This document shows, piece after piece, positions 1,587-55,509 of a DNA stretch of 64,000 bases. A program made the translations under genes and the position numbers. This DNA is from Candidatus Cloacimonadales bacterium (lineage in GTDB: Bacteria > Cloacimonadota > Cloacimonadia > Cloacimonadales > TCS61), in NCBI GenBank assembly GCA_030656075.1, contig JAUSOT010000047.1, positions 10 through 64,009 on the forward strand, given 5' to 3'. The notes under the pieces are model-generated. The model was not told the origin of the DNA. It saw only the letters and a list, made by a program, of their open reading frames with translations, and did no database searches. Numbering within the stretch: the first letter of the stretch is position 1; the number at the start of each line of letters is the position of its first letter.

Positions 1587-1611
1587 GATTACCTCCTTAG
1601 CCAATTAATTC

Positions 1612-1815: not shown

Positions 1816-1817
1816 AA

Positions 1818-2273
1818 TTACCTCCCTGGATTGCGATTAAAACTACGACAGCATTTCCCATGTCCAAAACCACCAGCCAGATCCATTAAATCATTTGAAC
1901 CGCAAGCCGGACACACTTCAGTTGGTTTATCAAACCCGGTTTTGAACATATGACCACAATGTTGGCAGCGTAACACATTACCTCGAAAATGAACATCACC
2001 GCCTTCGATAAACAAGTGCTTTCCTTCGATCAAAAACCGGGCAACTTTGCGGCGTGCCTGTTCAACAAGACGTGTGAAAGTAGAGCGGGATATTTCCATT
2101 TCATCGGCTGCTTCGGAATGCTCTTTCCCCAGATAATCAGTAAGCCTGATGGCTTCCAGTTCATCCAGATTCAGAGAAATCTGCTCTAAAGCATTCACCC
2201 TTACTCCGATCGGTTTGAAAGAAGTGTAAAGCGGTGGTTGATGAACCAGTCGTTTCTTCTTCGGTCGTGGCAT
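1818..2273 (-). CDS. DUF134 (UPF0251) predicted DNA-binding protein with a C-terminal CxxC..CxxC zinc-ribbon extension
   Basis: MPRPKKKRLV...FKP.GV N-terminus, sigma-70 region-4-like HTH (ISRSTFTRLVEQARRKVA), then CQHCGH...CPACGS. Confidence 0.75.
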   Translation of the reverse strand: MPRPKKKRLVHQPPLYTSFKPIGVRVNALEQISLNLDELEAIRLTDYLGKEHSEAADEMEISRSTFTRLVEQARRKVARFLIEGKHLFIEGGDVHFRGNVLRCQHCGHMFKTGFDKPTEVCPACGSNDLMDLAGGFGHGKCCRSFNRNPGR

Positions 2274-2304
2274 AATCTATCCTTTTATTTTTTATTCTGA
2301 GGAC

Positions 2305-2333
2305 AAAGTAATGCACATAGGTGCATAAGTCAA
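2305..2333 (-). promoter_or_regulatory. putative sigma-70-type promoter of the DUF134 operon with an embedded palindromic operator
   Basis: The minus strand reads TTGACT (2328-2333), a 17-nt spacer, then TACTTT (2305-2310). The spacer is the palindrome ATGCAC-ATAG-GTGCAT (2311-2326). Confidence 0.4.
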
Positions 2334-2569
2334 ATTAAAAATTTATTTATTTTTGCAATAAACAAAAACGAACCAAGAAACTAATTCCGGTTGATTTGGG
2401 AAGTTGTATTGAAACCCTGCCATCGCTTCTTTCACAATTTCATTCAGTTAGCAATGCCAGGATTGGAAGATTAAGAAATATGAAAGAAACCTTGAAAGGG
2501 CTAAGCAAGAAGTTGCTTTGAATGAAGCCCTTGCAAGGTTAAGTAGAAAATACCGACTCGAGTAAAAAG

Positions 2570-3013
2570 CTAAATTTCCAGCGGCGGAATCACCAGTACC
2601 GGTACTTTGGATTGTTTAATCAGGGCATCGTGCGTGCTGCCGACCAGCAGATTGTAAAATTTACCGTGTTTGTGAGAACCGACAATGATCAGATCAGCTT
2701 TAAATTTTTCAGCTTCAGTTATGATGTTGGCAGCCGTGGGACCTTCCAGCAAAACACTCTTCACTTCCAATCCACCCTGTTTTAGATCAGCTTTCAAATC
2801 CTTCAATTTCTGTTTAACTACATTCATCCTGCTTTCCCGCAAATCCAATGTTTGCGGAAATTCATCAAATTCACTTGTGGAAATATAGTAGTCGATAGAT
2901 TCACAATGAACGATGCACAGTTTTGCCTTGAATTCTAAAGTCAATTGTCTGGCATAAGTAATAACCAGATCTGTTTCTTCCGAAAAATCGATCGCAGCTA
3001 AAATTCTTTTCAT
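2570..3013 (-). CDS. universal stress protein (UspA family)
   Basis: 147 aa. Has MKRILAAIDFSE and DLIIVGSHKHGKFYNLLVGSTHDALIKQSKVPVLVI, the typical Usp ATP-binding C-terminus. Confidence 0.8.
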   Translation of the reverse strand: MKRILAAIDFSEETDLVITYARQLTLEFKAKLCIVHCESIDYYISTSEFDEFPQTLDLRESRMNVVKQKLKDLKADLKQGGLEVKSVLLEGPTAANIITEAEKFKADLIIVGSHKHGKFYNLLVGSTHDALIKQSKVPVLVIPPLEI

Positions 3014-3045
3014 TCTTTACCTCCTGAAATTTATATATTTTCTTT

Positions 3046-4158
3046 TTAAAAAGTAAGTCTCTCCAAATAGCCATTTGCTTTGGCACGATAGAATATGCCA
3101 TTTTTCCACAAAAGGCCTTCTCCCTTATCACCGTATTTAATGCCTGTATCAACCGGAATTACTTTATCTTTAAAAAAAGGATTAATAAAATCCTGCGTGG
3201 TATGTCCAACTACAATTTGAGAAGCCTTAAAATGATCGAGAATATCCCAAAGTTCCTGCTGTTTGATTTGTGGTGAAGATTTCGTATCTTCAAAATAGCC
3301 GCGATACCAGAAAGGTCCGTCGTCTTTGAAGAGAAAATTCAGAAAATCGCTGAATTTGATACTGTTTTCCGGTGCATCGATATTCTCCCGCACGGCTTCG
3401 TTAATATCTGCAAATGTGTAATTCCGGGAAATTATTTTAGGATGCAATCCGGCATGAACAAAGAGAATTCCATTAATTTTTATTACAGTATTTTTGGAAC
3501 GAAACCAGCGACCAAATTCAGAATCTTCAGCAAAAAACTTATAATAACTCCTGCCAAGTTTGTCGGCAACTACTTGATATTTCTCGTGCATATAGCGGGT
3601 GTCGCCCCGCAGCAGCATTATCTCATGGTTTCCCAATAGAAAATGAACTTTTCCATTCCAAATCTCAGCCTGTGTTTCCAATTTATGGATCAGCCATAAA
3701 CATTCGGTCACCATCGGACCTCGATCTACTACATCGCCCAAAATAACCAAATGTCCGTCTTCCCAAATCCAGTTATTCTCGGCATCGATCACTTTATTAT
3801 TCTGCAGAATTTGCACGAATCTGTCATATTGTCCGTGAATATCACTGATCACGAAAATTTTATCGACGTTGGTATAGGTGTCGGGGTCAACCAAAGGCTG
3901 GTAGGTGGAAATTTCAAATTCCTGCTCAAAACCTTCCAGATTGAAGGAATATGCACCCGACTCTTTCAAGCGGATTTCCTGGAAAACTTTATGCCCGTTC
4001 ATCACATACTCTACAGTAGCCAAATTGTCTTTCCAAAAAACATAAGGCCCGTCGGTGACTCTGGAATAATCTTCTTCTGTGTTAAATTGGATTTCCTGAG
4101 CGCTGAGATTGGATATCACGAAAATTATCAGAAACACAAATTTCAAGTTTTTCGACAT
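3046..4158 (-). CDS. secreted calcineurin-like metallophosphoesterase
   Basis: Motifs VISDIHG, GDVVDRG and LLGNHE. Signal peptide MSKNLKFVFLIIFVISNLSAQE. I chose the start at the ATG with AAGGA upstream (residue 14 of the track ORF). Confidence 0.75.
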   Translation of the reverse strand: MSKNLKFVFLIIFVISNLSAQEIQFNTEEDYSRVTDGPYVFWKDNLATVEYVMNGHKVFQEIRLKESGAYSFNLEGFEQEFEISTYQPLVDPDTYTNVDKIFVISDIHGQYDRFVQILQNNKVIDAENNWIWEDGHLVILGDVVDRGPMVTECLWLIHKLETQAEIWNGKVHFLLGNHEIMLLRGDTRYMHEKYQVVADKLGRSYYKFFAEDSEFGRWFRSKNTVIKINGILFVHAGLHPKIISRNYTFADINEAVRENIDAPENSIKFSDFLNFLFKDDGPFWYRGYFEDTKSSPQIKQQELWDILDHFKASQIVVGHTTQDFINPFFKDKVIPVDTGIKYGDKGEGLLWKNGIFYRAKANGYLERLTF

Positions 4159-32846: not shown

Positions 32847-33225
32847 GTAAACTCCTTATGTTATTATTTTTTCATAATCATTCTATACTTTGCCCCACCC
32901 TGCCCTCCCCAAAGGAGAGGGTAATAAAAATCATAGAATATAATAAACACTTTTCCTTCTCCGGTGGAGAAGGTGTCTGACCACATAAATGAACCTACAC
33001 GTTTATGTGGTCAGACGGATGAGACAGAATGCATCAAAACACTCTATCATTAAATTTTATCTGATGTTCAAAAGGCTTTTATGCAGCAAATCTGTAAACA
33101 AAATTCTAACTTTTTTAATTTTTAGAGATTTTTTATTTGACTGAAAATCAAAAAAATCAAATCTTTGCGCCAGTGAACTAAACGGAGAGTTCGGGAACTT
33201 GTTTGAACATTGGAAAACAGGAGGA

Positions 33226-34284
33226 ATGATGAAGCAATTTTTTATTATTTTGTTTTTAATTAGCTGTGTTTCAATTTTTGCCAATCCGATCGCACCACAT
33301 ATAAACATTACTGAATTCATTTTTACCGAGACCGGCTGGCAAATGGAATTGTACAGTGATTATCTGGAAACGAATTGTTTGGATAGTTGCCAGGTAGTGT
33401 GTTCCGAGGGAAGTTCCTATTTTCAACCGGGGATTGAATATTATGAAGGAACATTATTGGTTGTAACGGAAGAAGACTTAGTGACGCCATTATTTATAAA
33501 CGAACAAACGGATAGCGTCAGCATTTTATATTCTCTGGGAGATGGTTCTTCTTTCAACTTTGGAACTTTGAACAGCATGGTCTTGGCTCCTTCAGCAGGA
33601 CAATCTCTTCGAGCAGTTGGTTTATCTTTAAATGCTGCTGATACCTATTACGTGTTTGCCAAAGACAACACACCCTCGATGGGAACATGGGATGATGGAA
33701 TTGGTTTTAGGGGAATTTTTTGCGGTTATGTGTTTGATTCACTCATGAATCCTGTCGAAAATGTGGAAATCGAACATACACCGGATTGTATCAGTATTCC
33801 TGACATCAATACTGACGAAAATGGGTATTTCGAAGTAGAACTTTATGCCTTTAATTACAATTGTGATATTCATCTTGGAGCGCTTGCTTCAATGGATTCG
33901 ATAATATCTATTGAACCGGATGCACAAAATTATTATGAATTTGTTTTCGAAAATTATGTTCATTCCGATGATTATGAAATTGAGCTACCATCTTCGTTCT
34001 ATAAGCTTTTCAACTTTCCGAATCCATTCAATCCCAACACAGAGATTAGTTTTCAGATTTCAGACTTCAGTGATCAGAATTTAGAAATTCAGATATTTAA
34101 TTCCAAAGGACAGAAGATAAACGTGATTGATACGTTCCCAAACGGGAGTTTAGGAACGAGAGTAGTTGTTGAATGGGATGGAACAAATTCTTCTGGCAAA
34201 ACCTGTCCCTCCGGCGTTTATCTCTACAAACTTGTTTCAGGAGATAAAGAACTTGCAGCGAACAAAATGCTGCTTTTAAAATAA
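33226..34284 (+). CDS. secreted protein with a T9SS-type C-terminal sorting domain (paralogue 1 of 3)
   Basis: Signal peptide MMKQFFIILFLISCVSIFA. C-terminus FPNPFNPNTEISFQISDFS...IQIFNSKGQK...WDGTNSSGKTCPSGVYLYKLVSGDKELAANKMLLLK. The track start is a TTG; the ATG at 33226/33229 follows AGGAGG. Confidence 0.65.
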   Translation: MMKQFFIILFLISCVSIFANPIAPHINITEFIFTETGWQMELYSDYLETNCLDSCQVVCSEGSSYFQPGIEYYEGTLLVVTEEDLVTPLFINEQTDSVSILYSLGDGSSFNFGTLNSMVLAPSAGQSLRAVGLSLNAADTYYVFAKDNTPSMGTWDDGIGFRGIFCGYVFDSLMNPVENVEIEHTPDCISIPDINTDENGYFEVELYAFNYNCDIHLGALASMDSIISIEPDAQNYYEFVFENYVHSDDYEIELPSSFYKLFNFPNPFNPNTEISFQISDFSDQNLEIQIFNSKGQKINVIDTFPNGSLGTRVVVEWDGTNSSGKTCPSGVYLYKLVSGDKELAANKMLLLK

Positions 34285-34328
34285 GGTTACGAAGATAGAC
34301 TTCTCAACCAGATTTCATGGAGGTAAAG

Positions 34329-35378
34329 ATGCGAACGATTTTTTTAATTATTGTTTTTCTTTTGATCTGTTTTGCAGGTCTTTCTGCTAATCCGATTTCA
34401 CCCTTATTTTTAAGCGAATTCCAATTTAATAATTACTGGTGGTTTTTGGAAATATCTGACTTTTACGAATTTGGATTAGAAAATCTGGATGGTTGCAGTT
34501 TAGCGTCCAACAATTGTACCTCATATTTTGAAAATGGAATAACATGTAATGAAAATGGTGTATTCTTAGTTTATCATACTGATGTTCAACCACCTTTTGC
34601 ATTTAATCATTTAGGTGACACAATTACTTTTGAGAGCCCAATGGGCATGGACGAAATCTCATTTGGTATAGATGTAAATCCACCATATGGAGATCAAACA
34701 TTGGCAAGATTTACATATTGGTATGGTATACCGCCGGATGAAGATTTGGGCAGTGGCTTAGCGAAAAATAGTTACTCTACAATGGGTTCTTATCCATTTT
34801 GTGTAAATTCGAGTGGTGTAATAAATGGCTTCGTTTATGATTCCATGATGAATCCGGTTCCAAGTGTTCATTTGGAGTATAATTATTATACAAGCGAAGA
34901 GGATGAGATTTATACAGACGGTACAGGATATTTTTCGGCTTATTTGCTTGGTAGAAATTACAATTTAAATATTCATCTTGATGAATTAGCTTCGCTAAAT
35001 ACTACTATTACTGTTGAACCCGACAGTATATATTTTTTTGAATTCATCTTCGAAAATTATGTCCATTCCGATGATTATGAAATCTCTCTTCCAGCATTCT
35101 ATTACAAACTTTCCAACCACCCCAATCCTTTCAATCCCAGTACAGAAATTAGTTTTGAAACCACTAATTTGCACGAAGATGCACGAATTGAAATCTATAA
35201 TTCCAAAGGACAGAAAGTTACAAATCTCCCAATCACTCAATCACCAAATCACCAAATTTCTGTAGAATGGGACGGCACCAACTCAATCGGCAAATCCTGT
35301 CCATCGGGAGTTTATTTGTATAAACTTGTTTCGGGAGAAAAAGAACTGGCAGCGAATAAAATGCTGCTGCTTAAATGA
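34329..35378 (+). CDS. secreted protein with a T9SS-type C-terminal sorting domain (paralogue 2 of 3)
   Basis: MRTIFLIIVFLLICFAGLSA signal peptide after GGAGGT. It shares the N-terminal ANPI(A/S)P..EF module, a central GFVYDSMMNPV module and the C-terminal sorting domain with paralogue 1. Confidence 0.65.
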   Translation: MRTIFLIIVFLLICFAGLSANPISPLFLSEFQFNNYWWFLEISDFYEFGLENLDGCSLASNNCTSYFENGITCNENGVFLVYHTDVQPPFAFNHLGDTITFESPMGMDEISFGIDVNPPYGDQTLARFTYWYGIPPDEDLGSGLAKNSYSTMGSYPFCVNSSGVINGFVYDSMMNPVPSVHLEYNYYTSEEDEIYTDGTGYFSAYLLGRNYNLNIHLDELASLNTTITVEPDSIYFFEFIFENYVHSDDYEISLPAFYYKLSNHPNPFNPSTEISFETTNLHEDARIEIYNSKGQKVTNLPITQSPNHQISVEWDGTNSIGKSCPSGVYLYKLVSGEKELAANKMLLLK

Positions 35379-35490
35379 TGTCAAACTTCTGATTGTCCGT
35401 AGGTCATCAGAATGTTGGAAGGTTTATTCCAACACTCGGAAGAACACCTGTGGTGTACATTCCGAGTTTACAAGATTTTTGGAGGTTAAA

Positions 35491-36711
35491 ATGAAATATT
35501 TACTTTGTATTTTACTAACGTTCTCCCTGCTTTATGCTTATGAATGGACTCCTATCTGTGAGGAGGATTACTCGATAAATGGTTTTGCCCAGAATTTTGA
35601 AGGTAATTATCCTTTTGTGTTGGCCTGTGACGAAGGACTTCTTCTAAAGAATGGCGAGGAATGGATTCTGGAAAGTTATGGAGGGCTTCCGGTTTGGGAT
35701 GTTTTGCTGATCGGAAATGGTGAATTTCTATTAATTCAAGGTAACGGAAGTTATTCTGACGGTGTTTACAAATTTAATGAATTCACTTTAGAATTTGAAG
35801 TAATGGAATGGATTTTTGAACCTAATTTTCTGGTTTATAATGAAGATCAGCAGGAATATTTTATCGGAGCTTATGACGGTTTATTTAAATCTACCGATGG
35901 GGAGTCTTGGGAAGTATTTAACTTTTATGTGGAAATGAACTGCGTCGATATGGTATTCTGGCAAAATCATTATGTCGTTTCAGTCTCAGGCGATCTCAGC
36001 GGTGTTTATTATTCCGATGATTATGGCATTACATGGAATGCATCAACAAATTCTCCCTTGATCACCGACATGTCATTCAGAAATGATTCCACATTGTTTG
36101 GCATTTTTCCAGGTCCTTCAAATTCTTCCGGATTATGGAGTTCCACCGATTTTGGTGCTACCTGGCAGGTTGAGTTCTGGAGTGATTTTCTATCTTGCGT
36201 AGAAATTGATATGGCAGACAATATTTTTGTAGGCTGGGAAGCAGATGATGGTGTGGCAAAATGGTTGGGAAATGATCTCATTTTCATGAATGTTGGTCTA
36301 CCCAATCTTTCGATAAATAAACTGTATGTAAACCCGGCATTGAGCAGTATCCACATCATGGCGCTTACAAATGGTGGAGCTTATATTTTAACAAATTACA
36401 CAGAAGCGGAACACGTTCTTCCAAAGCCTGAGATCAAACTTTCCAACCACCCCAATCCCTTCAATCCATCTACAGAGATCAGTTTTCAGATTTCAGACTT
36501 CAGTAATCAGGATTTAGAAATTCAAATCTTTAATTCCAAAGGTCAGAAGTTAAAAAATCTCCCAATCACTCAATCACAAAATCACCAAATTTCTATTGAA
36601 TGGAACGGCACAAATTCAATTGGTAAACCTTGTCCATCTGGAGTTTATCTTTACAAATTGGTTTCGGGAGAAAAAGAACTGGCAGCGAATAAAATGCTGC
36701 TGCTTAAATAA
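35491..36711 (+). CDS. secreted protein with a T9SS-type C-terminal sorting domain (paralogue 3; different N-terminal body)
   Basis: MKYLLCILLTFSLLYA signal peptide after GGAGGT. The body has WD/GxW-rich beta-propeller-like repeats. The sorting domain is near-identical to that of paralogue 2. The track ORF start at 35326 overlaps the previous gene and is rejected. Confidence 0.65.
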   Translation: MKYLLCILLTFSLLYAYEWTPICEEDYSINGFAQNFEGNYPFVLACDEGLLLKNGEEWILESYGGLPVWDVLLIGNGEFLLIQGNGSYSDGVYKFNEFTLEFEVMEWIFEPNFLVYNEDQQEYFIGAYDGLFKSTDGESWEVFNFYVEMNCVDMVFWQNHYVVSVSGDLSGVYYSDDYGITWNASTNSPLITDMSFRNDSTLFGIFPGPSNSSGLWSSTDFGATWQVEFWSDFLSCVEIDMADNIFVGWEADDGVAKWLGNDLIFMNVGLPNLSINKLYVNPALSSIHIMALTNGGAYILTNYTEAEHVLPKPEIKLSNHPNPFNPSTEISFQISDFSNQDLEIQIFNSKGQKLKNLPITQSQNHQISIEWNGTNSIGKPCPSGVYLYKLVSGEKELAANKMLLLK

Positions 36712-44141: not shown

Positions 44142-46394
44142 TTAACACTTCGACCAGCCGCAGGAATTACAGATCAAACAGCCTTCCGAATGTTCGATGC
44201 TGCTGCCGCAATCCGGGCAGATAGCAATCAGGCCTTGAGAGCTTTTGGTAACTGAGCCGGTTGTGTTTTTATTCAATTCCTTAATATTGCTGATTGCTTT
44301 CTGATCGAGCTGGAGAAATTTTTCCAAAGATTTTGCCACGCTGTCCGCACAGGATGTGATCATTGTGCCGTTATTCCACATGGGAGATGGACAACGAATT
44401 CCCTTCAGTTGTCTCGCTATCGAACTCACTTTTACGTTGGATCGCAGACAGAGAGAAGTGAGTCGGGCAATTGCTTCCAATTGAGCTGAAGCGCAGCCGC
44501 CGACTTTTCCCATTTGAGTGAATATTTCGCAGGCTCCTTTTTCATCGGAATTGATCGTGACATACATGTTGCCGCAGCCTGTTTCCAATTTCTGAGTGAT
44601 TCCGGTCGTCACTTCCGGTCTCTCCCGCGGTGCAATGCGGTGACCGTTTGTTTTGGTTTCTTTAATCTCTTTGCCAAGATTCAAAACCTGGTTTTCGCGG
44701 CTGCCGTCCCGATAGACCGTAACGCCCTTGCAACCCAGTTCATAAGCCATTTCATAGGCCATCTGGATGTCTTCTTTCTTGGCTTCACGATTGAAATTTA
44801 TTGTTTTGGAAACGGCATTATCAGTGTATTTTTGGAAAGCAGCCTGCATCTTGATGTGCCATTGGGGAGAAATATCATGAGATGTAACAAAGATTTTTTT
44901 CAGGTTTTTCGGAATTTCAGGAAGGTGAACAATGCTGCCTGTTTCCGACACTTTTTCCATCAATTCCTTGGAATAAATTCCGGTATCTTTCATGGCTTGT
45001 TCAAAAATCGGATTCACAAAAAGCAGCTTTTCACCATCCATCACATTTTTCACATAGACTAATGAAAACTGGGGTTCGATGCCACCGGAAGTATTACAGA
45101 TCATACTGATCGTGCCGGTGGGGGCGATCGTGGTGGTAGTGGCATTCCTGATTCCGTTCTTAGCAATTTCTGCTATTAAAGCTTCCCAGTTCAGTTTATT
45201 CTTTTTCCTGAGTAATTTTCCGTTTTCGTAAATGCTGCCGGTAAAATTGGGAAATGAGCCAAATTTTTTGCTTAGCTCAATCGACTTTTGTTTGGAATGA
45301 AAATCGATGAATTCCATAATATCTTCGGCAAGCTGCAAAGCTGCATTACTGTTGTAAGGAATCTGCAGGCGGAACAACAGATCTGCCCAGCCCATCACAC
45401 CCAGTCCGATCTTGCGGTTCGCTTTCACCATGGCATCGATAGCAGGAAGAGGAAATTGAGATCGATTGATCACATCATCCAGAAATTCCACACTTTCGCG
45501 AACAGAATTTTTTAAAATTTCCCAGGAAAACTTTCCATTTTCGATCATTTCCGCCAGATTGAGTGAACCCAGATTACAGGCTTCGTTAGGCAGCAGAGGC
45601 TGTTCACCGCAGGGATTACTCGATTCGATCCTGCCGATATGCGGAGTGGGATTGTATTTATTGATCCGGTCGATAAAAATTATGCCCGGTTCGCCATTTT
45701 GATGCGCCATTTTTACGATCAGATTGAAAACATCCCGGGCATTCACTTTCTCGGTTACTTCACCGGTATGGGGAGCAATCAACTCAAAATCTTCATTCTC
45801 GTTTACCGCTTTCATGAATTTATCGGTGATGCCGACACTGATATTGAAATTGGTGAGTTGGCTGGTATTTTCTTTGCAGGTAATGAATTCCAAAATCTCG
45901 GGATGATCGACATTCAGGATGGCCATATTGGCTCCGCGCCTGGTTCCGCCCTGTTTGACAGCATCTGTGGCTGCATTGAATACTTTCAGAAAAGAAATCG
46001 GACCGCTGGAAACGCCGTTTGTACTGCGGACTCTGGCATTTGACTGGCGCAATTTGCTGAAACTGAAACCGGTTCCGCCGCCGCTTTTATGGATGAGAGC
46101 TGCATTTTTCACAGATTCAAAAATGCTTTCCATGCTGTCTTCCAATGGCAGGACAAAACAGGCTGAAAGCTGTTGGAGATCATTCCCGGCATTCATCAAA
46201 GTCGGAGAATTCGGCAGAAAATATCCTGAATCCAAAAGCTTGTAATAGCGTTCTTTTTTAGCGGGATCATTCCCGCTGATATTAGTAGCCACCCGATCTA
46301 TCATCTTAGGCCAATCTTCGATTAATTTGCCATTTTCATCACGTTTAAAATAACGTTTTTTCAGCACTGTTAAAGCGTTTTCTGTTAACTGCAT
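44142..46394 (-). CDS. nrdJ: adenosylcobalamin-dependent (class II) ribonucleotide reductase
   Basis: MQLTENALTVLKKRYF start, SNPCGEQPL active-site Cys loop, TIAPTGTIS, and a C-terminal CxxC..CxxC tail. I set the start at residue 17 of the track ORF, after AAAGGGGAAGG. Confidence 0.85.
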   Translation of the reverse strand: MQLTENALTVLKKRYFKRDENGKLIEDWPKMIDRVATNISGNDPAKKERYYKLLDSGYFLPNSPTLMNAGNDLQQLSACFVLPLEDSMESIFESVKNAALIHKSGGGTGFSFSKLRQSNARVRSTNGVSSGPISFLKVFNAATDAVKQGGTRRGANMAILNVDHPEILEFITCKENTSQLTNFNISVGITDKFMKAVNENEDFELIAPHTGEVTEKVNARDVFNLIVKMAHQNGEPGIIFIDRINKYNPTPHIGRIESSNPCGEQPLLPNEACNLGSLNLAEMIENGKFSWEILKNSVRESVEFLDDVINRSQFPLPAIDAMVKANRKIGLGVMGWADLLFRLQIPYNSNAALQLAEDIMEFIDFHSKQKSIELSKKFGSFPNFTGSIYENGKLLRKKNKLNWEALIAEIAKNGIRNATTTTIAPTGTISMICNTSGGIEPQFSLVYVKNVMDGEKLLFVNPIFEQAMKDTGIYSKELMEKVSETGSIVHLPEIPKNLKKIFVTSHDISPQWHIKMQAAFQKYTDNAVSKTINFNREAKKEDIQMAYEMAYELGCKGVTVYRDGSRENQVLNLGKEIKETKTNGHRIAPRERPEVTTGITQKLETGCGNMYVTINSDEKGACEIFTQMGKVGGCASAQLEAIARLTSLCLRSNVKVSSIARQLKGIRCPSPMWNNGTMITSCADSVAKSLEKFLQLDQKAISNIKELNKNTTGSVTKSSQGLIAICPDCGSSIEHSEGCLICNSCGWSKC

Positions 46395-46698
46395 CCTTCC
46401 CCTTTTCATGCTTGGAGCCCGAATTTTTAAAGTAATCCGCAACTCTTTGCCATATATTGAGATATGATTCTCAATTACATAATCCCAACACTAAAATTAA
46501 CTTAATTTAATTGTTAAATTTCAGTCTGTTAGCGCAGGTGTCAAGACAGAAAAAAAACTAAAAATCTAAATTATTTGTAAAAGCCTTTGTAATCTACATT
46601 GGCGAAGTTAAAAAAAAATCAGGGAAAAAATGAATGAATATTTTCGCTGGAATGGTCTTATTTTTGCCTTCCAAACCTGCCGGAAAAGTATATTTTTT

Positions 46699-48351: not shown

Positions 48352-48612
48352 CAACCCCCTCGCTCCCCCTATTGAGGGGGAAGAAAACTATCATTACATA
48401 CATCTCGTTCCAATGCTCCAGCGTTGGAATGCTGCATCTCCGCTCCGGCGGACTTTAAATTAAAACTTTGCCGCATTTCATTCTCCCAACCCCCTCGATC
48501 CCCCTTGACAGGGGGAAGTAAACGATCATTACTTACATCTCGTTCCAATGCTCCGGCGTTGGAATGCTGCATCTCCGCTCCGGCGGACGTTAAATCCAAA
48601 CTTTGGCACATC
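48352..48612. repeat. tandem duplication (period ~135 nt) of a three-hairpin composite unit
   Basis: Unit 1 starts at 48352 and unit 2 at 48487. Each contains CAACCCCCTCG.TCCCCCT...AGGGGGAAG, CGTTCCAATGCTCC.GCGTTGGAATG and CTCCGCTCCGGCGGAC. The units are roughly 90% identical by eye. Confidence 0.8.
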
Positions 48613-48653
48613 TCCTCCAAGAAATCTTTGAAAGAAGATGTGGCAAAGTGCAT

Positions 48654-49871
48654 TTACTCATTTCGAATGATCTTGATCGGATCGATCTTCACTGTGCGCC
48701 GGGCAGGATGAAGCGTTGTCAGGAAACTGATGATGATGGCAACCAATGGTCCCAAAATGAAATCTGTCGTGCGCATTTCCACCGGCAGCCATTGCAGCGG
48801 AAAACCGGGAACCGGGATCAGGATAAAATGCCATTTCAATTGAGCGTAAAGCAGTCCCGAAGCCAGAACCAGCGCGATCAAAGCACCCATCACTCCGATG
48901 ATCACACCGATGTTCAGAAAAATTTTTATAATATCTTTTTCGGAAGCTCCCAAAGCTTTCAGTACTCCGATTTCAGTTTTTTTTTCCGCCACCAGTTTGA
49001 TGAAATTTCCGGTCATGTTGAAGGAAGCGATGATGATCATCAACGCCAACACCAGGAACATGATGACTTTCTCCATCTTGATGGCATTGAACAGATTGGC
49101 ATCAAACACGCTCCAATCTTCCACCAGAAATTCCGACCCTAACAATTCCTGGATTTTACGAGCATATTTTTTCGAGTTTTCGGAATTGACCGACTTAATT
49201 TCGATCTGGCTGACTTCGTTTTGGTAGCCGAGAAAATACTGAGCATTCTGCAGTGAAATGTAGGTGTAAACCTGGTCGTATTCCGGCATACCGGAGACAA
49301 AAATTCCCACCACCTTCAACTTTTTGCTTTTGGGCAGCAGACCAAATGGCGTCGGCTCCGTGCCAAGCGGCGACATCAACTGAACATATTCGCCCACCGT
49401 GGCATTGATCGTGAGGGAAAGATCGAGACCGATGATGATGCCGTCATTTTGCAGGCTTTCGACGGTGGGAACTCCCACTACCATTTTTTGGACGAGACCG
49501 GTGATGCGTGTCTGAGAATCAAAATCGATGCCAAAACATAAGTTAGAACCAAGATTGTTGCCTTTTTGGATCATCAATTCCATTTCACACACCGGCGCTG
49601 CGGCAACCACTTCCGGTAATTCCGTTATCTGCTTTGTAATTTCATTATAATCGGAGATTGGATTATATTCTTTTTGATGAACTTTAATCTCAGCTTTGGA
49701 ACCCACCACCCTATTTCTCATATCACTGTCGAAGCCGTTCATCACCGAAGAAACGACCAACAGTGAAAAAACTCCGATGATGATGCCGCCCATGGATAGC
49801 AGGTTGGAGAAAGTGAAAAATATCTTCTTCCTGCCTTTCAGATATTTGAGTGCGAGTTTTAAGTGGAACAT
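48654..49871 (-). CDS. LolC/LolE-like lipoprotein-releasing ABC transporter permease (MacB-FtsX family)
   Basis: 405 aa with MFHLKLALKYLKGRKK, a periplasmic domain, and a C-terminal FtsX TM bundle ending PARRTVKIDPIKIIRNE. Confidence 0.8.
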   Translation of the reverse strand: MFHLKLALKYLKGRKKIFFTFSNLLSMGGIIIGVFSLLVVSSVMNGFDSDMRNRVVGSKAEIKVHQKEYNPISDYNEITKQITELPEVVAAAPVCEMELMIQKGNNLGSNLCFGIDFDSQTRITGLVQKMVVGVPTVESLQNDGIIIGLDLSLTINATVGEYVQLMSPLGTEPTPFGLLPKSKKLKVVGIFVSGMPEYDQVYTYISLQNAQYFLGYQNEVSQIEIKSVNSENSKKYARKIQELLGSEFLVEDWSVFDANLFNAIKMEKVIMFLVLALMIIIASFNMTGNFIKLVAEKKTEIGVLKALGASEKDIIKIFLNIGVIIGVMGALIALVLASGLLYAQLKWHFILIPVPGFPLQWLPVEMRTTDFILGPLVAIIISFLTTLHPARRTVKIDPIKIIRNE

Positions 49872-49899
49872 TATTTATCCAAGCCTATCTTCATTTTAT
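49838..49899. repeat. direct repeat copy A (lolC first 34 nt plus 28 nt upstream)
   Basis: 62 of 62 nt identical to 51023-51084. Similarity continues with mismatches to about 49917 / 51102. Confidence 0.9.
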
Positions 49900-51012
49900 G
49901 AAATTCCCTTTTTCATCATTTTCCTCTATTAATTCTTTCAGTTGTTGTTTATCTGGCAGGATTGTTTTGTATTTGCTGGCAAAGATTTGCTCATTATCTT
50001 CTGGCAAGGTCATTCTCACCAAAGCGTTTTCTTTCTGTTTACAAAGAATAATTCCTATGGTTTTATTTTCATCAGCCATTTTTATTTCTCGGTCATAGTA
50101 GTTTACATACATTTGCATTTGACCCAAATCCTGGTGCCTCAATTCACCAATTTTTAAATCGATGATTACAAAACATCTTAATAGCCGATTGTAAAAAACC
50201 AGATCAATAAAGAAATGCTTCTCTTTAAAAGTCATCCGTTTCTGTCGGGCTACAAAAGTGAAACCTTTTCCTAATTCCAATAGAAAATGTTCCAATTTAT
50301 CGATCAATCTGCTTTCTAAATCTGATTCGGAATATTTTGCATGCTCCGGCAATCCTAAAAATTCCAAAATATACGGTTCTTTAACTGCATCGGCTGGTTT
50401 TGAAATGATTTGCCCTTTTTGTGAGAGTTCTTTGATAGCCTCTTTATCTTTACTCAATACTAAACGTTCGTACAGAGCAGAATCAAATTGTCTCTTCAGT
50501 TCTCTTAAACTCCAATTATTTGTATGAGCTTCAATTTCATAAAATTTTCTCTCTTCGAAATTCTCTATGCGCATTAAGAAAACGTAATGTGACCAACTCA
50601 AAATAAATTCCGCAGACGATGTCTGCGTTTTTCCTACTTCAAATTCCCCAGACACTGTCTGCTGTTTTTGTAATTCCCTCGACAGCATTGAAGATTTCTT
50701 CTTTTCTAATTCCGCAGACATTGTCTGCGGAATTGAGTAAGTTAGATAAAAGAACTTCATTTGCTCAAGATTACGCACAGAAAATCCCCTGCCAAATTCT
50801 TTTATAAGTTTTTCAGACAGGTCTTCTAATATTTGCTCCCCATATTCTGCACGTTTTTCTCCGCCCTGTAAATGCTCTACGATTATTCGTCCAATCTCAA
50901 AATAGGTACAAACCATTGTGGAATTGATGGAACGAATAACCTGGGAGCGAGCGGTTATTATCAGTTCCTTTACTTCGTGAAAAATGTTTTTTTCTATGTT
51001 GTTCGAATTCAT
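49891..51012 (-). CDS. DUF1016 / YhcG-family PD-(D/E)XK nuclease (copy 1)
   Basis: 373 aa. N-terminal domain ITARSQVIRSINSTMVCTYFEIGRIIVE...GFSVRNLEQMKFFY, and a C-terminal nuclease core FIDLVFYNRLLRCFVIIDLKIGELRHQDLGQMQMYVNYY (D..(D/E)xK). Confidence 0.8.
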   Translation of the reverse strand: MNSNNIEKNIFHEVKELIITARSQVIRSINSTMVCTYFEIGRIIVEHLQGGEKRAEYGEQILEDLSEKLIKEFGRGFSVRNLEQMKFFYLTYSIPQTMSAELEKKKSSMLSRELQKQQTVSGEFEVGKTQTSSAEFILSWSHYVFLMRIENFEERKFYEIEAHTNNWSLRELKRQFDSALYERLVLSKDKEAIKELSQKGQIISKPADAVKEPYILEFLGLPEHAKYSESDLESRLIDKLEHFLLELGKGFTFVARQKRMTFKEKHFFIDLVFYNRLLRCFVIIDLKIGELRHQDLGQMQMYVNYYDREIKMADENKTIGIILCKQKENALVRMTLPEDNEQIFASKYKTILPDKQQLKELIEENDEKGNFIK

Positions 51013-51022
51013 TTGTTTCCTC

Positions 51023-51084
51023 TCAGATATTTGAGTGCGAGTTTTAAGTGGAACATTATTTATCCAAGCCTATCTTCATTTTAT
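51023..51084. repeat. direct repeat copy B (pseudo-start of lolC fused to the DUF1016 gene)
   Basis: Identical to 49838-49899. It encodes a 15-codon leader MFHLKLALKYLRGNK whose TGA overlaps the DUF1016 ATG. Confidence 0.9.
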
Positions 51085-51250
51085 AAAACTTCCTTTTTCA
51101 TTTTTAAGCCAACTTATTGATTCCTTTTTTTTTAACAATCAATTCTAGCAATGTTCAAGCACGCTGCGGAATCAGCATGATTCCACCAAAGCGAACCAAC
51201 TAACGTTTGAATCGGCACGATTCAAACAAAACAGACGGATAACTCTACCG

Positions 51251-53170
51251 GTAGAGTAGAAACAGGTTAACCAGTAGGAAAACCTGTAACCCTCATCAAA
51301 CCGTACGTGCGGTTTTCCCGCATACGGCTTTCCAACAAGATTCGTCTCAGGCATTCACAAGTGTCAAACAAAAGTATATCTCGCCGGATCTATCAATCCA
51401 TAATGACTGACTAAATAGGCGAATGCACTACGGCGATAGAGCTTACACTTTCGCTGACTTTTACGCTGAAAAAATCGATAAAAACTTTCATCAAGATACC
51501 AATGAAGTTTACCTTTCGCTGTACTGGGATAACTAATTCCTCTTATCGAGAAATAGTTCAACCAACCCCGGATGATTGGATTTAGTGTTCGGGTAATTGC
51601 TTCCGAACTGAAATGGCGACAATACCGAAAAACTTTCCTAATCTTCTCTCGAATTTTAAGCTCGCTCTTCTTGCTTGGAACAACATTCCAATACTTACCA
51701 TTATTGCCATAAATCCCTCTATCATATCGGAAAGTAAATCCCAGAAAATCAAATGATTCTTTTCTGGCGTCAATTTGTTTTGTCTTATCTGTATTTACAT
51801 CTAACTCCATCTTCTCCAACATCTTGTTAAGATATTCCAACGATGCTTCAGGTAGTTTTCTACCCATCAGAATGAAATCATCTGCATAGCGGATCATTGA
51901 AATTCCATACTTGTAAAAGTAACCATCTTTTCGTGCCACGGCTTTATCCAATAAATTCAGATAAATATTCGCCAGCAGTGGAGATATTACACCTCCCTGT
52001 GGAACACCTTTTCTACTTTTATGAAGTTTGTTATCTTCAAAAACTGTACATTTGAGCCATTTCTTGATGAGATTTATAACCCGCTTGTCTGAGATTCGTT
52101 TCTCAAGCAAAATGAGTAATTTATCATGTGGGATATTATCGAAAAATCCCGATAGATCGGCATCATACACATTAGTATTCCCACGCTTAAGATTAGATTT
52201 GATTTCAGTGATTGCTCCTTTGGCTGAACGCTTGGGTCGAAATCCGTATGAACAGTCTTCAAAATCGGCTTCGAATACAGGCTCTATAACCATTTTACAA
52301 CTCATCTGAACTATTCTGTCTCTTATTGTTGGAATCCCGAGAGGCCGCATTTTTCCATTTGCTTTAGGTACGTAAACTCTCAATATCGGCTGAGGTTTGT
52401 AGGTCTCTGCTTTTAGCTCTTCTGCCAGTTCCCTGAGATAGCTTTCGACTCCGTATTCCTCAATTTCTAAAAAGGTTACTTTGTCGTATCCAGGTACTCC
52501 TTGGTTGGCTTTTACACGTTTCCATGCTTCGAATAAGAAATGTTGGAGGGATATTTTGTCATGCATTACATAAAAACAAAACTCCTTCTCTTGCTTGGCT
52601 TTGAGATATATTTTACGTTGAAATGATCGCACTTTTCCGGTTCCGCTTAACGCTTTACCAGGTTTATCTTTTAGATTTTCATCAATCACAAAATGCTCCT
52701 TTTCTTGTAAAATCTCTTGAAGCAATGCCCCTTCGCTCCTTCTGAGTTATGTTGTCTCAAATATCAACACTACTATGGGCATCTCCGACTGCCTATATGC
52801 CTGATTTTCATTTCGGATTTCCTTATAGAAAACCATTTAAGATTGCCATTCTTTAGCATAAAGGCTCTCTCACGTTTATGATGTTATCATTCTTAAACAC
52901 GCCATCAGTTACAACTCCGGCAGCCCTCAACAGTGCTCTTTTCCGTTGCTTCCTGTTGAGTTGCAGACTTCGTCTCACCTGAGGAACTCGTCGGCTGCAA
53001 ATTACATTTAACGAAGCTAATCTGTTCGCTTTCGCTACGGCTTATTTAATGCTAAAAAGAGCTTTGACCGATCCGTTACCGGATCAAGCCATCTTCCTTG
53101 CTTCCATCTGAACGGAAAATTAGATGGGTTGGATTTGAACCAACTGACAATATCACACTTCGTGACGCAC
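51251..53170 (-). mobile_element. bacterial group II intron (about 1.9 kb, RT/maturase ORF in domain IV)
   Basis: The 5' end is GTGCG (complement of 53166-53170). Domain V is AGCCGTATGCGGGAAAACCGCACGTACGGTTT (complement of about 51299-51330). Domain VI and the 3' end read ...CTACTCTAC, with the 3' boundary good to about +/-10 nt. The intron sequence CAGGTG (complement of 52976-52981) is complementary to the last 6 nt of the 5' exon, CACCTG. Confidence 0.8.
51364..52725 (-). CDS. group II intron reverse transcriptase/maturase (no endonuclease domain)
   Basis: 453 aa. Has RT motifs incl. RPLGIPTIRDRIVQ and YADDFILMG, and a maturase X region RGWLNYF. It ends without HNH/En motifs. Confidence 0.9.
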   Translation of the reverse strand: MLQEILQEKEHFVIDENLKDKPGKALSGTGKVRSFQRKIYLKAKQEKEFCFYVMHDKISLQHFLFEAWKRVKANQGVPGYDKVTFLEIEEYGVESYLRELAEELKAETYKPQPILRVYVPKANGKMRPLGIPTIRDRIVQMSCKMVIEPVFEADFEDCSYGFRPKRSAKGAITEIKSNLKRGNTNVYDADLSGFFDNIPHDKLLILLEKRISDKRVINLIKKWLKCTVFEDNKLHKSRKGVPQGGVISPLLANIYLNLLDKAVARKDGYFYKYGISMIRYADDFILMGRKLPEASLEYLNKMLEKMELDVNTDKTKQIDARKESFDFLGFTFRYDRGIYGNNGKYWNVVPSKKSELKIREKIRKVFRYCRHFSSEAITRTLNPIIRGWLNYFSIRGISYPSTAKGKLHWYLDESFYRFFQRKSQRKCKLYRRSAFAYLVSHYGLIDPARYTFV

Positions 53171-53193
53171 CAGGTGCGATGTTAGACGACCGT
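53171..53193. repeat. left terminal inverted repeat of the ORF328 cassette
   Basis: GATGTTAGACGACCGT (53178-53193) is the perfect reverse complement of 54191-54206. The outer CAGGTGC matches GCACCACCTG at 54214-54223. Confidence 0.8.
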
Positions 53194-54168
53194 TTTTCGT
53201 TTATACTCATTAATACCTGTATTAAACAAATCTTGAGCAGAAATATTTTTATTCACTGAAAAAAGCAAATTATAAATCTCAAAAAAACTGTTTTCATCAT
53301 AATTTCTCATTTTGTAATTATGCTCTAAACCAGCTTCTCTTAGGACAAAACGATTATAAAAACTACAAAGATTCTCGTAGGCTTTGTAAATAATGTTAAA
53401 ATCATTTGAAGAAATATCCGACTCATTATTTAACATTTTATTTTTAAACAAATCAATTAAAATGTGAGTTCCCGTTTCGTGACAAATAAATTGGATAAAC
53501 CACTCAGTGTCTGAATTATAATAAAACCAATTCTTTTCGTAACCGAGAGAATTTGCTGACGGTCCGTTTTTTATTCCAGTACTCAAAACAATATCGTAAT
53601 AAGCGTATTTAAAATTAAGTTTTGTTACATCTTCCCACAGCTTTATAAAATTAAATTCTGATAACCGATTGCTGAGAGTATTAATTTTTTCTCGAATTTT
53701 TTCTTTTTCTATTGGCCAAACATCATTTAGAAAATTATCAAAATTTTTTATGTAAATTTCAGAGATTCGCTTAATTTCATTGTTAAAACTGTATAGGTGT
53801 GAATCAAAATTTGGTTTAAACCAGTCTTTAAGATTAGAAATGTAAGATTGATATTTATTTTTAAAATTATTGAAAGAATGCATCTCAATAGATTTGTTTA
53901 GTAGATTAAAGTATGTTTCGATTTCATTTATATTTTTAAGATTAATATAATTTGGGAAAAAGATAATTAATTCTGTTAGCTTACTCATTTGGCCGTCTCC
54001 CCATTTAAGAAGATTCTTGTTCTCTTGTAGGAATTTTAAATCTATCGAATCAATACTATCAAAATAAGTCTTTGAATAATCACTATCGAATCCGATTTTT
54101 GCTACACTCAAAAGATGAGCATTATAATTTGAAAATATCTCGTATTTTAATCGAATTATCTTATTCAT
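53182..54168 (-). CDS. hypothetical protein (very AT-rich; contains CHETGTH, an HExxxH-type motif)
   Basis: 328-aa uninterrupted ORF, Asn/Lys/Phe-rich. No family recognised and the metalloprotease idea rests on one motif only. Confidence 0.5.
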   Translation of the reverse strand: MNKIIRLKYEIFSNYNAHLLSVAKIGFDSDYSKTYFDSIDSIDLKFLQENKNLLKWGDGQMSKLTELIIFFPNYINLKNINEIETYFNLLNKSIEMHSFNNFKNKYQSYISNLKDWFKPNFDSHLYSFNNEIKRISEIYIKNFDNFLNDVWPIEKEKIREKINTLSNRLSEFNFIKLWEDVTKLNFKYAYYDIVLSTGIKNGPSANSLGYEKNWFYYNSDTEWFIQFICHETGTHILIDLFKNKMLNNESDISSNDFNIIYKAYENLCSFYNRFVLREAGLEHNYKMRNYDENSFFEIYNLLFSVNKNISAQDLFNTGINEYKRKTVV

Positions 54169-54190
54169 TATAGATATCCATATTCTGCTT

Positions 54191-54223
54191 ACGGTCGTCT
54201 AACATCCATACTTGCACCACCTG
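54191..54223. repeat. right terminal inverted repeat of the ORF328 cassette
   Basis: ACGGTCGTCTAACATC, a 7-nt insertion, then GCACCACCTG. Confidence 0.8.
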
Positions 54224-54292
54224 TTTTGTTGCACCTAACTAACCTATAGTTAGGGTAATTTGTTGTACATTACCTTTTCCCTATTTACTTCT

Positions 54293-54369
54293 TCGCCAGA
54301 TATTTCTCGATTACTTTTTCATAAAAGCCCGGCAATTTATTTGTGATGAAATTAGTAATGTTTTTCAGA
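54293..54369 (-). pseudogene. relic 3' end of a GT4 glycosyltransferase gene
   Basis: My translation is ...NFITNKLPGFYEKVIEKYLAKK*. Compare the C-terminus of the intact GT4 gene at 55510: ...QIIAEKILDFYQRVIEKYRVG*. Confidence 0.45.
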
Positions 54370-55395
54370 TCAACCCTCATTTATGATGATTTCTTCAATT
54401 TGATGAATTAATTGTTCTTCTTTAGGTAATATGTAAGTGTATCTTGAAGCAAAAACTTTATTTGATAAACTGCCAAGAATATATTCGGCTGCGATTTCAT
54501 CTTTTTCTGCACAAATAATAATTCCTATTGGTGGATTGTCATTCTCTTCATTTACTTCGGTTTTGTAATAATTCAAATATGTATTCATTTGTCCACCGTC
54601 AGTTATTTGTAATTTTCTTGTTTTCAATTCGATTAAAACATAAGATTTCAGGATTTTATTATAGAACACCATATCTACAAAATAATGTGTGTTGTTTATT
54701 GTAATTATTTGCTGTGAGCCGAGAAACATAAATCCTTTCCCCAACTCAAGCAGGAAATCTTCTATATGTCTTATCAATTTTCTTTCCAAGTCTTTCTCTA
54801 AAATCGGTTTGTTTTCAGGAATACCCAAGAATTCAAAAACATACGGATCTTTTGTTATATCATCCGGTTCTCTGATTATATTACCTTCTTGCGCTAATTT
54901 AATGATTTTATCTTTATTATTCTTTCCTTGTGATAATAATAGTCTTTCAAATAAGGAACTGTCTATTTGTCGTTTAAGTTCTCGAACAGACCAATTTGCG
55001 TTTTGGCATTCTTTTTCGTAAAATGCTCTTTTATTAGAATCCGAGATCATTAATAATTCACAGTATTTTGACCAACTAAGATGTCCAGACAGCGTCTGGA
55101 CACGTGAATAATGTAAATACAACTTTCTCATATTAAACAGGTTAGCTCGCGAAAATCCTTTACCCAATCTTTCTGTTAGAATTTTAGAAATCTGTAAAAT
55201 TATTTTTCGACTTGTCTGATCATCGACATTAGAATTTGTTTCTTTTTCTATAATAACTTTTCCAATATTCCAATAAGTAACAAGTAGTTCAGTATTTATA
55301 TTGGCTTTAATTCTGTTGCGTGAATTCTTAACCAGATTATGGATTTCTTCTATTAACTCAGTTACATCTAATCCTGCTATCGTGTTAATTTCCAT
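54370..55395 (-). CDS. DUF1016 / YhcG-family PD-(D/E)XK nuclease (copy 2)
   Basis: 341 aa. Has GFSRANLFNMRKLY, LSWSKY, WSVRELKRQIDSSLFERL and the nuclease core FVDMVFYNKILKSYVLIELKTRKL...GQMNTYLNYY. Confidence 0.8.
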   Translation of the reverse strand: MEINTIAGLDVTELIEEIHNLVKNSRNRIKANINTELLVTYWNIGKVIIEKETNSNVDDQTSRKIILQISKILTERLGKGFSRANLFNMRKLYLHYSRVQTLSGHLSWSKYCELLMISDSNKRAFYEKECQNANWSVRELKRQIDSSLFERLLLSQGKNNKDKIIKLAQEGNIIREPDDITKDPYVFEFLGIPENKPILEKDLERKLIRHIEDFLLELGKGFMFLGSQQIITINNTHYFVDMVFYNKILKSYVLIELKTRKLQITDGGQMNTYLNYYKTEVNEENDNPPIGIIICAEKDEIAAEYILGSLSNKVFASRYTYILPKEEQLIHQIEEIIINEG

Positions 55396-55509
55396 TTATG
55401 TCTCCAGATAAATTTCTTCTAAAAAAACCAGCCTCTATTTACATAAAATCGCCGCATAATAACATTTCCAGGTTGAAAATCATCCAACTCTTCAACCAGT
55501 TATTTCTGT

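Follow-up and report, generated by a model that had tools for sequence, protein, structure and literature searches.

A DUF1016/YhcG nuclease gene bracketed by two copies of the lolC start in a Cloacimonadales contig, and loci of the same design at radC and gmrSD

A 64-kb stretch of DNA from a Candidatus Cloacimonadales bacterium (contig JAUSOT010000047.1; the whole stretch is called the window below) contains an intact gene for a lolC/lolE-type permease. Directly upstream of it lies a gene for a nuclease of the DUF1016/YhcG family, termed DUF1016a here, and this gene is bracketed by two copies of the lolC 5' end. Copy A lies upstream of the nuclease gene and is detached from the lolC body, while copy B holds the true lolC start. 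A reading of the window from its letters alone (the sequence-only reading) had described a perfect 62-nt duplication around a single DUF1016 gene and proposed a Campbell-type integration as its origin. The duplication was confirmed by in-register comparison and by a repeat search, and the identity of the gene by Pfam. The features of the locus are collected in Table 1.

Table 1. Features of the lolC locus and of the related radC locus; positions refer to the window unless a contig is given
Feature	Position	Strand	Basis
Repeat copy A (upstream; lolC -45 to +39, detached from the lolC body)	51019-51101	-	Repeat search, in-register comparison
Mini open reading frame (ORF) MKIGLDK* of copy A; TAA overlaps the leader ATG (TAATG)	51056-51079	-	Sequence reading
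Decoy leader ORF MFHLKLALKYLRGNK*, lolC codons 1-13 plus two codons	51009-51056	-	Sequence reading
DUF1016a, DUF1016/YhcG-family PD-(D/E)XK nuclease gene, 373 aa, sole cargo	49891-51012	-	Pfam, PADLOC
Three copies of a 22-nt palindromic unit in the DUF1016a linker; best AATTCCGCAGACAATGTCTGCGGAATT, 13-bp arms	50606-50734		
Repeat copy B (downstream; nuclease C-terminal tail, mini-ORF, true lolC start)	49834-49916	-	Repeat search, in-register comparison
Intact lolC/lolE-type permease gene, 405 aa, target gene	48654-49871	-	Pfam MacB_PCD, FtsX
Variable island, 5.6 kb, GT4 gene to lolC: DUF1016b, orf328, group II intron, 149-nt spacer, DUF1016a cassette	49872-55509	-	
Group II intron: 5' GTGCG at 53170, reverse transcriptase (RT)/maturase ORF 52725-51364, domains 5/6 at 51332-51251	51251-53170	-	Rfam, Pfam
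orf328, 328 aa, no Pfam or PADLOC match	53182-54168	-	
DUF1016b, second DUF1016/YhcG gene, 341 aa, 38% identical to DUF1016a	54370-55395	-	Pfam, PADLOC PDC-S02
L102 radC stack	652-3476 of IMGVR_UViG_GVMAG-S-1041346-124_000001		

The perfect run (49838-49899 = 51023-51084) occurs twice in the whole window, and a perfect match of 62 nt excludes chance as its origin. With its homologous flanks the repeat extends to 83 nt at 95% identity, with a spacing of 1185 nt. The outer 17 nt of the lolC repeat match at 14 positions; on the inner side, one mismatch (51022 G vs 49837 A) is followed by three matches. All four mismatches between the copies are transitions, and all lie in the outer 21 of the 83 nt. 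A third, degenerate copy of the lolC 5' end, which would mark serial integration, was found neither elsewhere in the island nor elsewhere in the window. The lolC-derived part of copy A, given as 34 nt in the sequence-only reading, reaches codon 13 (39 nt), which places the insert 39 nt inside lolC and sets the duplicated region at lolC -45 to +39. Codon 12 is AGA (R) in copy A, as in relatives, and AAA (K) in lolC itself; copy A matches the lolC of three relatives (L092, L086, and L093) down to 51018. The sequence AGAGGA, which forms lolC codons 12-13 in relatives, also resembles a Shine-Dalgarno sequence and stands 5 nt ahead of the nuclease ATG, and 3-7 nt at the joint of lolC and nuclease sequence may represent microhomology.

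DUF1016a is the only ORF between the copies. As described earlier, it follows a 15-codon leader whose TGA overlaps the nuclease ATG as ATGA, and its own 3' end falls inside the downstream copy. The nuclease stop (TGA, 49893-49891) overlaps the ATG of a 7-codon mini-ORF, MKIGLDK*, and the TAA of this mini-ORF in turn overlaps the lolC ATG. Since starts and stops overlap throughout, the whole stretch forms one chain of translationally coupled frames. In the relative with a 95% identical lolC (L086), the upstream ORF ends in a related sequence, ..IMIGLDK*. Promoter and terminator scans gave no useful signal: 22 promoter-like sites were found compared to 24 expected by chance, and the lolC promoter candidate is an unremarkable consensus match.

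By its Pfam matches, to YhcG_C (2.9e-58, 196.6 bits, cut-off 32.5) and DUF1016_N (1.8e-38, 132.2 bits, cut-off 32.8), DUF1016a is a clear predicted member of the DUF1016/YhcG PD-(D/E)XK nuclease family (PF06250 and PF17761). Residues E246, D270, and K287 are invariant across the DUF1016 alignment, and the E...D...(D/E)xK motif is intact in DUF1016a; position 285 is D in DUF1016a (IIDLK) and E in DUF1016b (LIELK), the second family member of the window. The match to PADLOC PDC-S02 (E 1.2e-140) makes DUF1016a a candidate anti-phage gene, PDC-S02 itself being only a candidate single-gene defense system. The G+C content at third codon positions (GC3) is 0.34 in DUF1016a, 0.56 in lolC, and 0.48-0.56 in neighboring core genes, and by this gap DUF1016a is compositionally foreign. 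The nearest homolog outside the source contig is 69% identical. Homologs end in ..LIEETE*, and DUF1016a reads 7-8 codons further, into copy B. No close relative, second copy, or circle of DUF1016a was found by exact protein look-ups and by scanning metagenomes twice, with core sequences of 30 and 23 nt, and no identical DUF1016 gene was found at two different sites. Two homologs, P0002 (447 aa) and P0054 (381 aa), contain internal tandem duplications of ~115 aa and ~43 aa, which are either real or strain-collapse assembly artefacts.

Forty-seven related lolC loci (L086-L094, L001-L045) were compared; they represent other species or strains and not the same sequence. In all 47, lolC has just one 5' end and is not preceded by a DUF1016 gene, and hence the arrangement in the window is an insertion and not the ancestral order. 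Empty sites of the kind that the sequence-only reading had called for are thus present in relatives. The relatives with lolC genes of 95%, 89%, and 86% identity keep length and synteny. In many relatives lysS directly abuts lolC, and in the closest ones the order is lysS, signaling genes, GT4, and lolC. In L092 (lolC 89% identical), GT4 is followed after 48 nt by lolC, so the 5.6 kb between these genes in the window are an insertion. At the same spot, L086 (lolC 95% identical) carries other cargo, namely an Eco57I-like enzyme and small ORFs, and the 86% relative a mannose-6-phosphate isomerase gene. Judged by predicted gene content, the GT4-lolC interval is a variable, defense-flavored hotspot, with the DUF1016a cassette as its lolC-proximal member. 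The initial 34 nt of lolC are the same in copies A and B, and the 95% relative deviates from them at six positions; the split from this relative is therefore older than the duplication or than the latest conversion between the copies. A recombination tract with mosaic divergence along lolC was considered and rejected, as the identity to the 95% relative is uniform (82-94% per 90 nt).

The wider occurrence of this design was explored at ~55 non-redundant DUF1016 loci, taken from IMG/VR contigs, the contexts of the closest homologs, and complete plasmids. A flanking repeat is absent at ~50 of them. The usual placement is seamless within restriction-modification (RM) or defense operons (hsdM-DUF1016-hsdS, DUF1156-DUF1016-PLD/SNF2, methylase-DUF1016-GmrSD), and DUF1016/YhcG genes are known as cargo of type I RM, BREX, and DISARM-like operons and of integrative and conjugative elements (ICEs) (PMC9881135, PMC4316617). 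Two independent loci with unrelated targets show the repeat design of the lolC locus, L102 at radC and L150 at gmrSD. The sequence-only reading had named a lack of flanking duplications at other DUF1016 loci as a sign of a one-off tandem duplication; with these two loci, the survey does not bear this out.

At L102, the first 11 radC codons are copied before the DUF1016 gene, where they open a 41-aa decoy ORF, and intact radC stands behind DUF1016. Further upstream, an AAA_14/DUF4143 gene stands behind one more copy of the radC promoter/5' region, the third and an older one, and the copies R1, R2, and R3 bracket this gene and the DUF1016 gene. Two single-gene cassettes are thereby stacked at radC +30 and +33 (codons 10-11), one of them a non-DUF1016 gene bracketed in the same way as DUF1016. 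The array may be longer than seen, the contig ending 650 nt upstream. At L150, gmrSD codons 1-7 (~12 including diverged positions) are duplicated upstream of DUF1016, with a leader MKIELKEKTV* and ATGA overlaps on both sides. This locus was independently assembled in 20 contigs from many samples. In the corresponding empty operons (L160, L162-167; 85-88% identity), the methylase stop overlaps the gmrSD start as ATGA.

Among 1395 ORF starts scanned across all the fetched DNA, an ORF's own 5' end was duplicated upstream only at lolC in the window and at radC in L102, the 22-nt repeat of L150 being below the threshold of the scan. The duplications measure 83 nt at lolC and 22-36, 34, and ~110 nt at the other loci, and mismatches are concentrated at the repeat edges in L102 and L150 as well. 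At a further locus, L101, a ~105-nt repeat (91%) brackets a full-length DUF1016 gene; this repeat lies between genes, in a complex locus that also holds DUF1016 mini-remnants and a toxin-antitoxin pair, and L101 is a possible fourth case of the design. Internally deleted DUF1016 mini-copies, which retain aa 89-128 and the last 11-19 aa only, flank a SocA/Panacea-PemK toxin-antitoxin pair at L101 (504-663) and L125 (4728-4859 and 6050-6184). Bracketing repeats at non-DUF1016 genes (481 ORFs) were evaluated as the same phenomenon and rejected; they are tandem paralogs (window 33199-36711) or repeated intergenic regions (L033, L009). Among 16 DUF1016 loci on complete plasmids, no strong example was found, only a weak 20-nt duplicate at the hsdM-end/ATGA junction of Iodobacter pl1. 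On conjugative plasmids, DUF1016 is coupled by a 4-nt overlap to an upstream site-specific integrase in L173 (P. putida pTTS12), L182 (Citrobacter IncC/IncP plasmid), and L183 (Ilyobacter pILYOP02); in Ilyobacter a serine recombinase gene overlaps the DUF1016 3' end, and on the Pseudomonas plasmids radC lies downstream. The design at three DUF1016 loci suggests a recurrent and so far undescribed route by which such genes may enter operons.

A second feature shared by DUF1016 genes is an intragenic palindrome. The three palindromic units in DUF1016a form a 36-aa insertion relative to DUF1016b, which carries a palindrome in the region of 55082-55102 of the window. Palindromes were also found in L150, L173, L168, L177, L181, L126, and others; the DUF1016 genes that carry one come from Cloacimonadota, Pseudomonas, Citrobacter, Clostridium, Cetobacterium, Hymenobacter, Francisella, and many uncultured sources. 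The place is fixed, at ~nt 260-350, just before the LSWSHY codons, and arms of 6-15 bp surround a CA(C/G)TG center. Arm sequence and encoded peptide vary between genes; the complementarity of the arms is kept. In 23 DUF1016 genes, a 12-pair helix is 88% paired compared to 66% in shuffles, and the covariation score is 0.546 compared to 0.127 in shuffles (0 of 500 shuffles), both for windows picked because they held the best palindrome locally. Few of the pairing exceptions are G-T pairs, which makes a role at the DNA level as likely as one at the RNA level. To our knowledge, this palindrome has not been described. It may promote the rearrangements of these genes, act as an operator, or be a nuclease site.

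For the origin of the lolC arrangement we favor, at about even chances, the insertion of a promoterless, horizontally acquired DUF1016/YhcG gene in lolC by a Campbell-type crossover of a circularized fragment with a lolC-like segment. The donor would be DNA of a related lineage in which the nuclease gene immediately preceded lolC. From this DNA, a fragment that begins 5 nt ahead of the nuclease ATG and ends at lolC +39 would circularize, with the joint GAGAGGA/AACAA, and the circle would integrate by one homologous crossover in the ~84-nt lolC-like segment; host recombination would suffice, and an element-encoded recombinase would be unnecessary. As the frames read, the upstream copy would keep the native lolC start signals, and ribosomes would pass the 15-codon decoy leader into the nuclease gene via ATGA. 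Intact lolC would stay translationally coupled through the overlaps of nuclease stop, mini-ORF, and lolC start. Recombination across the 62-nt core would precisely delete the nuclease gene.

Several observations support this reading, among them the insertion polarity, the foreign composition of the gene, and the two analogous loci. A single crossover of the chromosome with a circle that carries the gene and ~84 nt of lolC-like sequence would produce exactly this geometry. At the compared loci, the upstream limit of the homology varies, its other end lies 30-39 nt inside the target gene, and the sequences diverge directly beyond that point. There is also a precedent in E. coli, where DNA with one homologous segment mostly gave single-crossover integration of the re-circularized molecule with 109-950-bp duplications, in experiments designed to detect homology-facilitated illegitimate recombination (PMC3240628). 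As in Campbell-type integration generally, for example of a suicide plasmid, the insert is flanked by the homologous segment in direct duplicate, one copy keeps the native upstream region and the other rebuilds the gene, and the event is reversible by recombination between the repeats with no need for an element-encoded enzyme. Unlike there, the homologous segment is only 84 nt long (22-36 and 34 nt at the other loci), the insert is one promoterless ORF trimmed to within 5 nt of its start codon, and the events recur beside DUF1016 at similar target depth.

The integration proposed in the sequence-only reading is thus sustained in its crossover geometry, and an autonomy or drive of the nuclease, which it also raised, is unsupported: ~50 of ~55 loci are without repeat, a non-DUF1016 gene is bracketed at radC, and the next relative of DUF1016a is only 69% identical. 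The best explanation is that the nuclease gene is cargo of a variable defense-type island and not the agent of insertion, its self-mobility being unproven.

Other observations weigh against a plain crossover of a circularized fragment. A donor-type locus, with DUF1016a directly upstream of lolC and no duplication, was seen in 0 of the 47 relatives, and the look-ups and the two metagenome scans recovered neither a circle nor a second copy or close relative of the gene. The confinement of the four mismatches to the outer 21 of 83 nt (P ~0.004 if randomly placed) is not predicted by a plain crossover; heteroduplex repair, later gene conversion, or selection on the start region can explain it. Insertion depth is alike in four events (+30, +33, ~+36, and +39), where random fragment ends predict otherwise; selection against longer truncated products or against longer unstable repeats can explain this. 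The pattern occurs at 3 of ~55 DUF1016 loci compared to 0 of ~1350 other gene starts, and this enrichment hints at a gene-specific factor. Finally, the window is a single metagenome-assembled contig. Because of the edge mismatches, the similar depth, and the DUF1016 enrichment, a dedicated mechanism, nuclease-linked or with a recombinase in trans, stays alive.

How single defense genes enter unrelated operons without a recombinase is an open question in defense-island biology. The lolC locus and its two look-alikes keep a fresh footprint of such an entry, in which the duplicated start both expresses the newcomer and repairs the host gene. If host recombination of a re-circularized fragment is the cause, this would be a simple route of operon invasion, with a precise and reversible 'loss switch' across the 62-nt repeats; with participation of the nuclease or the palindrome, the cassette would represent a minimal mobile element of a new kind. 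In both cases, the signature is searchable: a decoy leader identical to the first codons of the downstream gene. Given the recurrent architecture and the family-wide palindrome, the lolC locus is worth following up.

The dedicated mechanism in question would make DUF1016 genes, perhaps PD-(D/E)XK genes more widely, minimal selfish cassettes that, by themselves or by a recombinase in trans, target the first 10-13 codons with an att-like duplication that regenerates the start. We regard this as unlikely, even with three independent DUF1016 loci in unrelated targets at similar depth (+33, ~+36, +39) and a footprint enriched beside DUF1016 genes. The radC cassettes stacked at +30/+33 resemble tandem accretion at an att site, and both encode PD-(D/E)XK-clan domains (DUF1016 and DUF4143, the latter of which we take to belong to this Pfam clan). 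The mini-copies in L101 and L125 keep the palindrome segment and the 3' end, the conserved palindrome could serve as a cis site, and integrase-DUF1016 pairs with ATGA overlap exist on conjugative plasmids. Against this stand the ~50 of ~55 loci without flanking repeat, a duplication length that varies (22-36, 83, and 110 nt), unlike that of a fixed-stagger enzyme, the lack of a shared sequence motif visible at the three insertion points, cassettes without recombinase, the lack of any identical DUF1016 gene at two sites, and a family otherwise known as RM, BREX, and ICE cargo (PMC9881135, PMC4316617). Still less probable, in our view, is a version in which DUF1016/YhcG genes are recombinase-free mobile cassettes that cut or recombine in the first 10-13 codons with the palindrome as cis site, and in which the seamless members would be old insertions with a decayed leader.

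Comparison with known mobile systems gives a similarly divided picture. Integrative elements that carry a replacement gene end in attP (phages, ICEs, and cis-mobilizable elements) likewise have direct repeats that are identical on one side of the crossover, restore the target gene, and can stack two cassettes at one site, as at L102; flanking repeats with target restoration and empty sites in relatives are indeed seen here. Unlike them, the cassette is a single 1.1-kb gene with no integrase in or beside it, hits the 5' end of its target and not the usual 3' end, and has repeats of varying length, and the same element was found neither elsewhere nor as a circle. The nearest mobile-element enzyme is the RT of the intron. 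Integron cassettes are also promoterless single-ORF units at a fixed site that are expressed from outside, and the L102 stack is array-like; however, the repeat here lacks an internal dyad (no attC-type palindrome), no IntI lies in the annotated 41-64 kb of the window, and the repeated unit is the target's own start. A transposon or insertion sequence is contradicted by the lack of a transposase and of inverted repeats at the insert ends, and by the long and variable duplication. For a free-standing homing endonuclease gene, presence/absence polymorphism between species is seen; homing by itself predicts no target duplication. Sequential displacement arrays (type VI secretion system (T6SS) effector-immunity loci of V. 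cholerae and Rhs orphans; PMC5361080) share a conserved neighbor as one-sided anchor, anchor stubs left by successive insertions, and a place in conflict and defense loci; they displace 3' toxin ends and leave orphan immunity genes, whereas the insertion at lolC duplicated the 5' start of the gene that follows and displaced nothing. The RM, BREX, and DISARM-like operons and ICEs with DUF1016 (PDC-S02) share the family and the tight operon-internal placement with overlapping starts and stops, but the host gene here encodes a housekeeping lipoprotein-release permease and the footprint is still visible.

A one-off local rearrangement is as unlikely an origin as the dedicated mechanism. It would consist of a tandem duplication followed by loss of the first copy, or of microhomology-primed repair of a break in lolC, with later homogenization of the core by gene conversion. 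The structure does amount to 1.07 tandem units of 1185 nt, and a perfect core with decayed edges, seen also in L150 and L102, is the classic signature of converting repeats. In addition, DUF1016 genes are duplication-prone, as shown by the internal tandem duplications of P0002 and P0054 and by the varying number of linker units, and the 27-31-bp perfect palindrome in the gene could provoke breaks. However, a simple tandem duplication should leave more than 1.07 units, and neither a whole second unit nor a recognizable remnant is present. An older remnant of the nuclease gene beside copy A was sought and rejected, the similarity between the flank and the nuclease 3' end being at chance level (p = 0.5-0.7); the upstream flank is instead the unrelated 149-nt spacer and the group II intron. 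A rearrangement would, moreover, still need a prior nuclease-lolC adjacency, which 0 of 47 relatives show. Two short resemblances were put down to chance, one of 14/15 nt located 80 nt further out (p ~0.01) and one of 18 nt that links nuclease codons 7-12 to lolC codons 15-20 (offset 21 nt).

Very improbable is an assembly artefact, in which the assembler would have threaded a loop through the shared core of 62 nt, the loop being a strain variant or a circle of 1.185 kb. The source is one metagenome-assembled contig of 64,911 nt, a 62-nt exact repeat exceeds some assembler k-mers, and the two metagenome scans for the core gave nothing independent. However, both novel junctions (lolC codon 13/nuclease start and nuclease tail/lolC leader) must be in reads, so that the lolC-like core flanks the gene on both sides in some molecule; the four differences between the copies are not made by a collapsed or threaded repeat, and the analogous L150 arrangement stands in 20 independently assembled contigs. 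Retro-insertion, by which the RT of the neighboring intron would have copied nuclease mRNA into the lolC start, is hardly credible: the RT ORF lies 350 nt upstream, the insert is a promoterless ORF only, and target-primed reverse transcription yields variable long target duplications such as the variable lengths seen here, but the RT was rejected as agent since none lies near L150 and L102, the intron sits 12 nt past the orf328 stop with an unrelated spacer of 149 nt between it and the cassette, and we know of no such process in bacteria.

Besides the cassette, the island holds the group II intron, orf328, and DUF1016b. The intron has matches to RF02003 (50.1 bits) and RF00029 (53.9 bits) in Rfam and to RVT_1 and GIIM in Pfam and, with domains 1-4, domains 5/6, and the RT/maturase ORF all predicted, is a complete group II intron. 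Its 3' end lies 150 nt upstream of the lolC repeat, and it is probably a bystander to the DUF1016a cassette. That no integrase or transposase is present, as stated in the sequence-only reading, holds insofar as DUF1016a is the sole ORF between the repeats, and no integrase was found in the annotated part of the window (41-64 kb); the intron with its RT ORF had been overlooked. The 149 nt that separate the intron 3' end from the repeat contain two small hairpins, TTGAATCGtgcCGATTCAA and GGAATCAtgcTGATTCC. DUF1016b and orf328 have a GC3 of 0.24 each, a composition as foreign beside the core genes as that of the cassette, and may form a two-gene unit of the island. DUF1016b, also overlooked in the sequence-only reading, has no flanking repeat.

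Further observations concern other parts of the window and its relatives. Downstream of lolC, in the spacer to a DUF7033 gene, a 128-nt unit is present twice in tandem (48352-48479 and 48487-48614, 88% identity); the spacer measures 20-250 nt in relatives. The paralogs at 33199-36711 (+) are three tandem genes of 361, 353, and 461 aa with 3' ends that are 79-88% identical over 120-190 nt. In other Cloacimonadota, an Exo_endo_phos gene upstream of lysS has a copy of one intergenic region on either side (L033 1904-2252/3214-3483; L009 3157-3202/4294-4339). This repeat is 250-345 nt long, 97-99% identical, and ends at the ribosome-binding site of each next gene. In three relatives (L001 4399-5522, L008 3969-5089, L031 9990-11110), ~1.1 kb of DNA interrupt the gene for class II ribonucleotide reductase after residue 278, an interruption of intein or intron size that is absent from the gene in the window (44142-46442).

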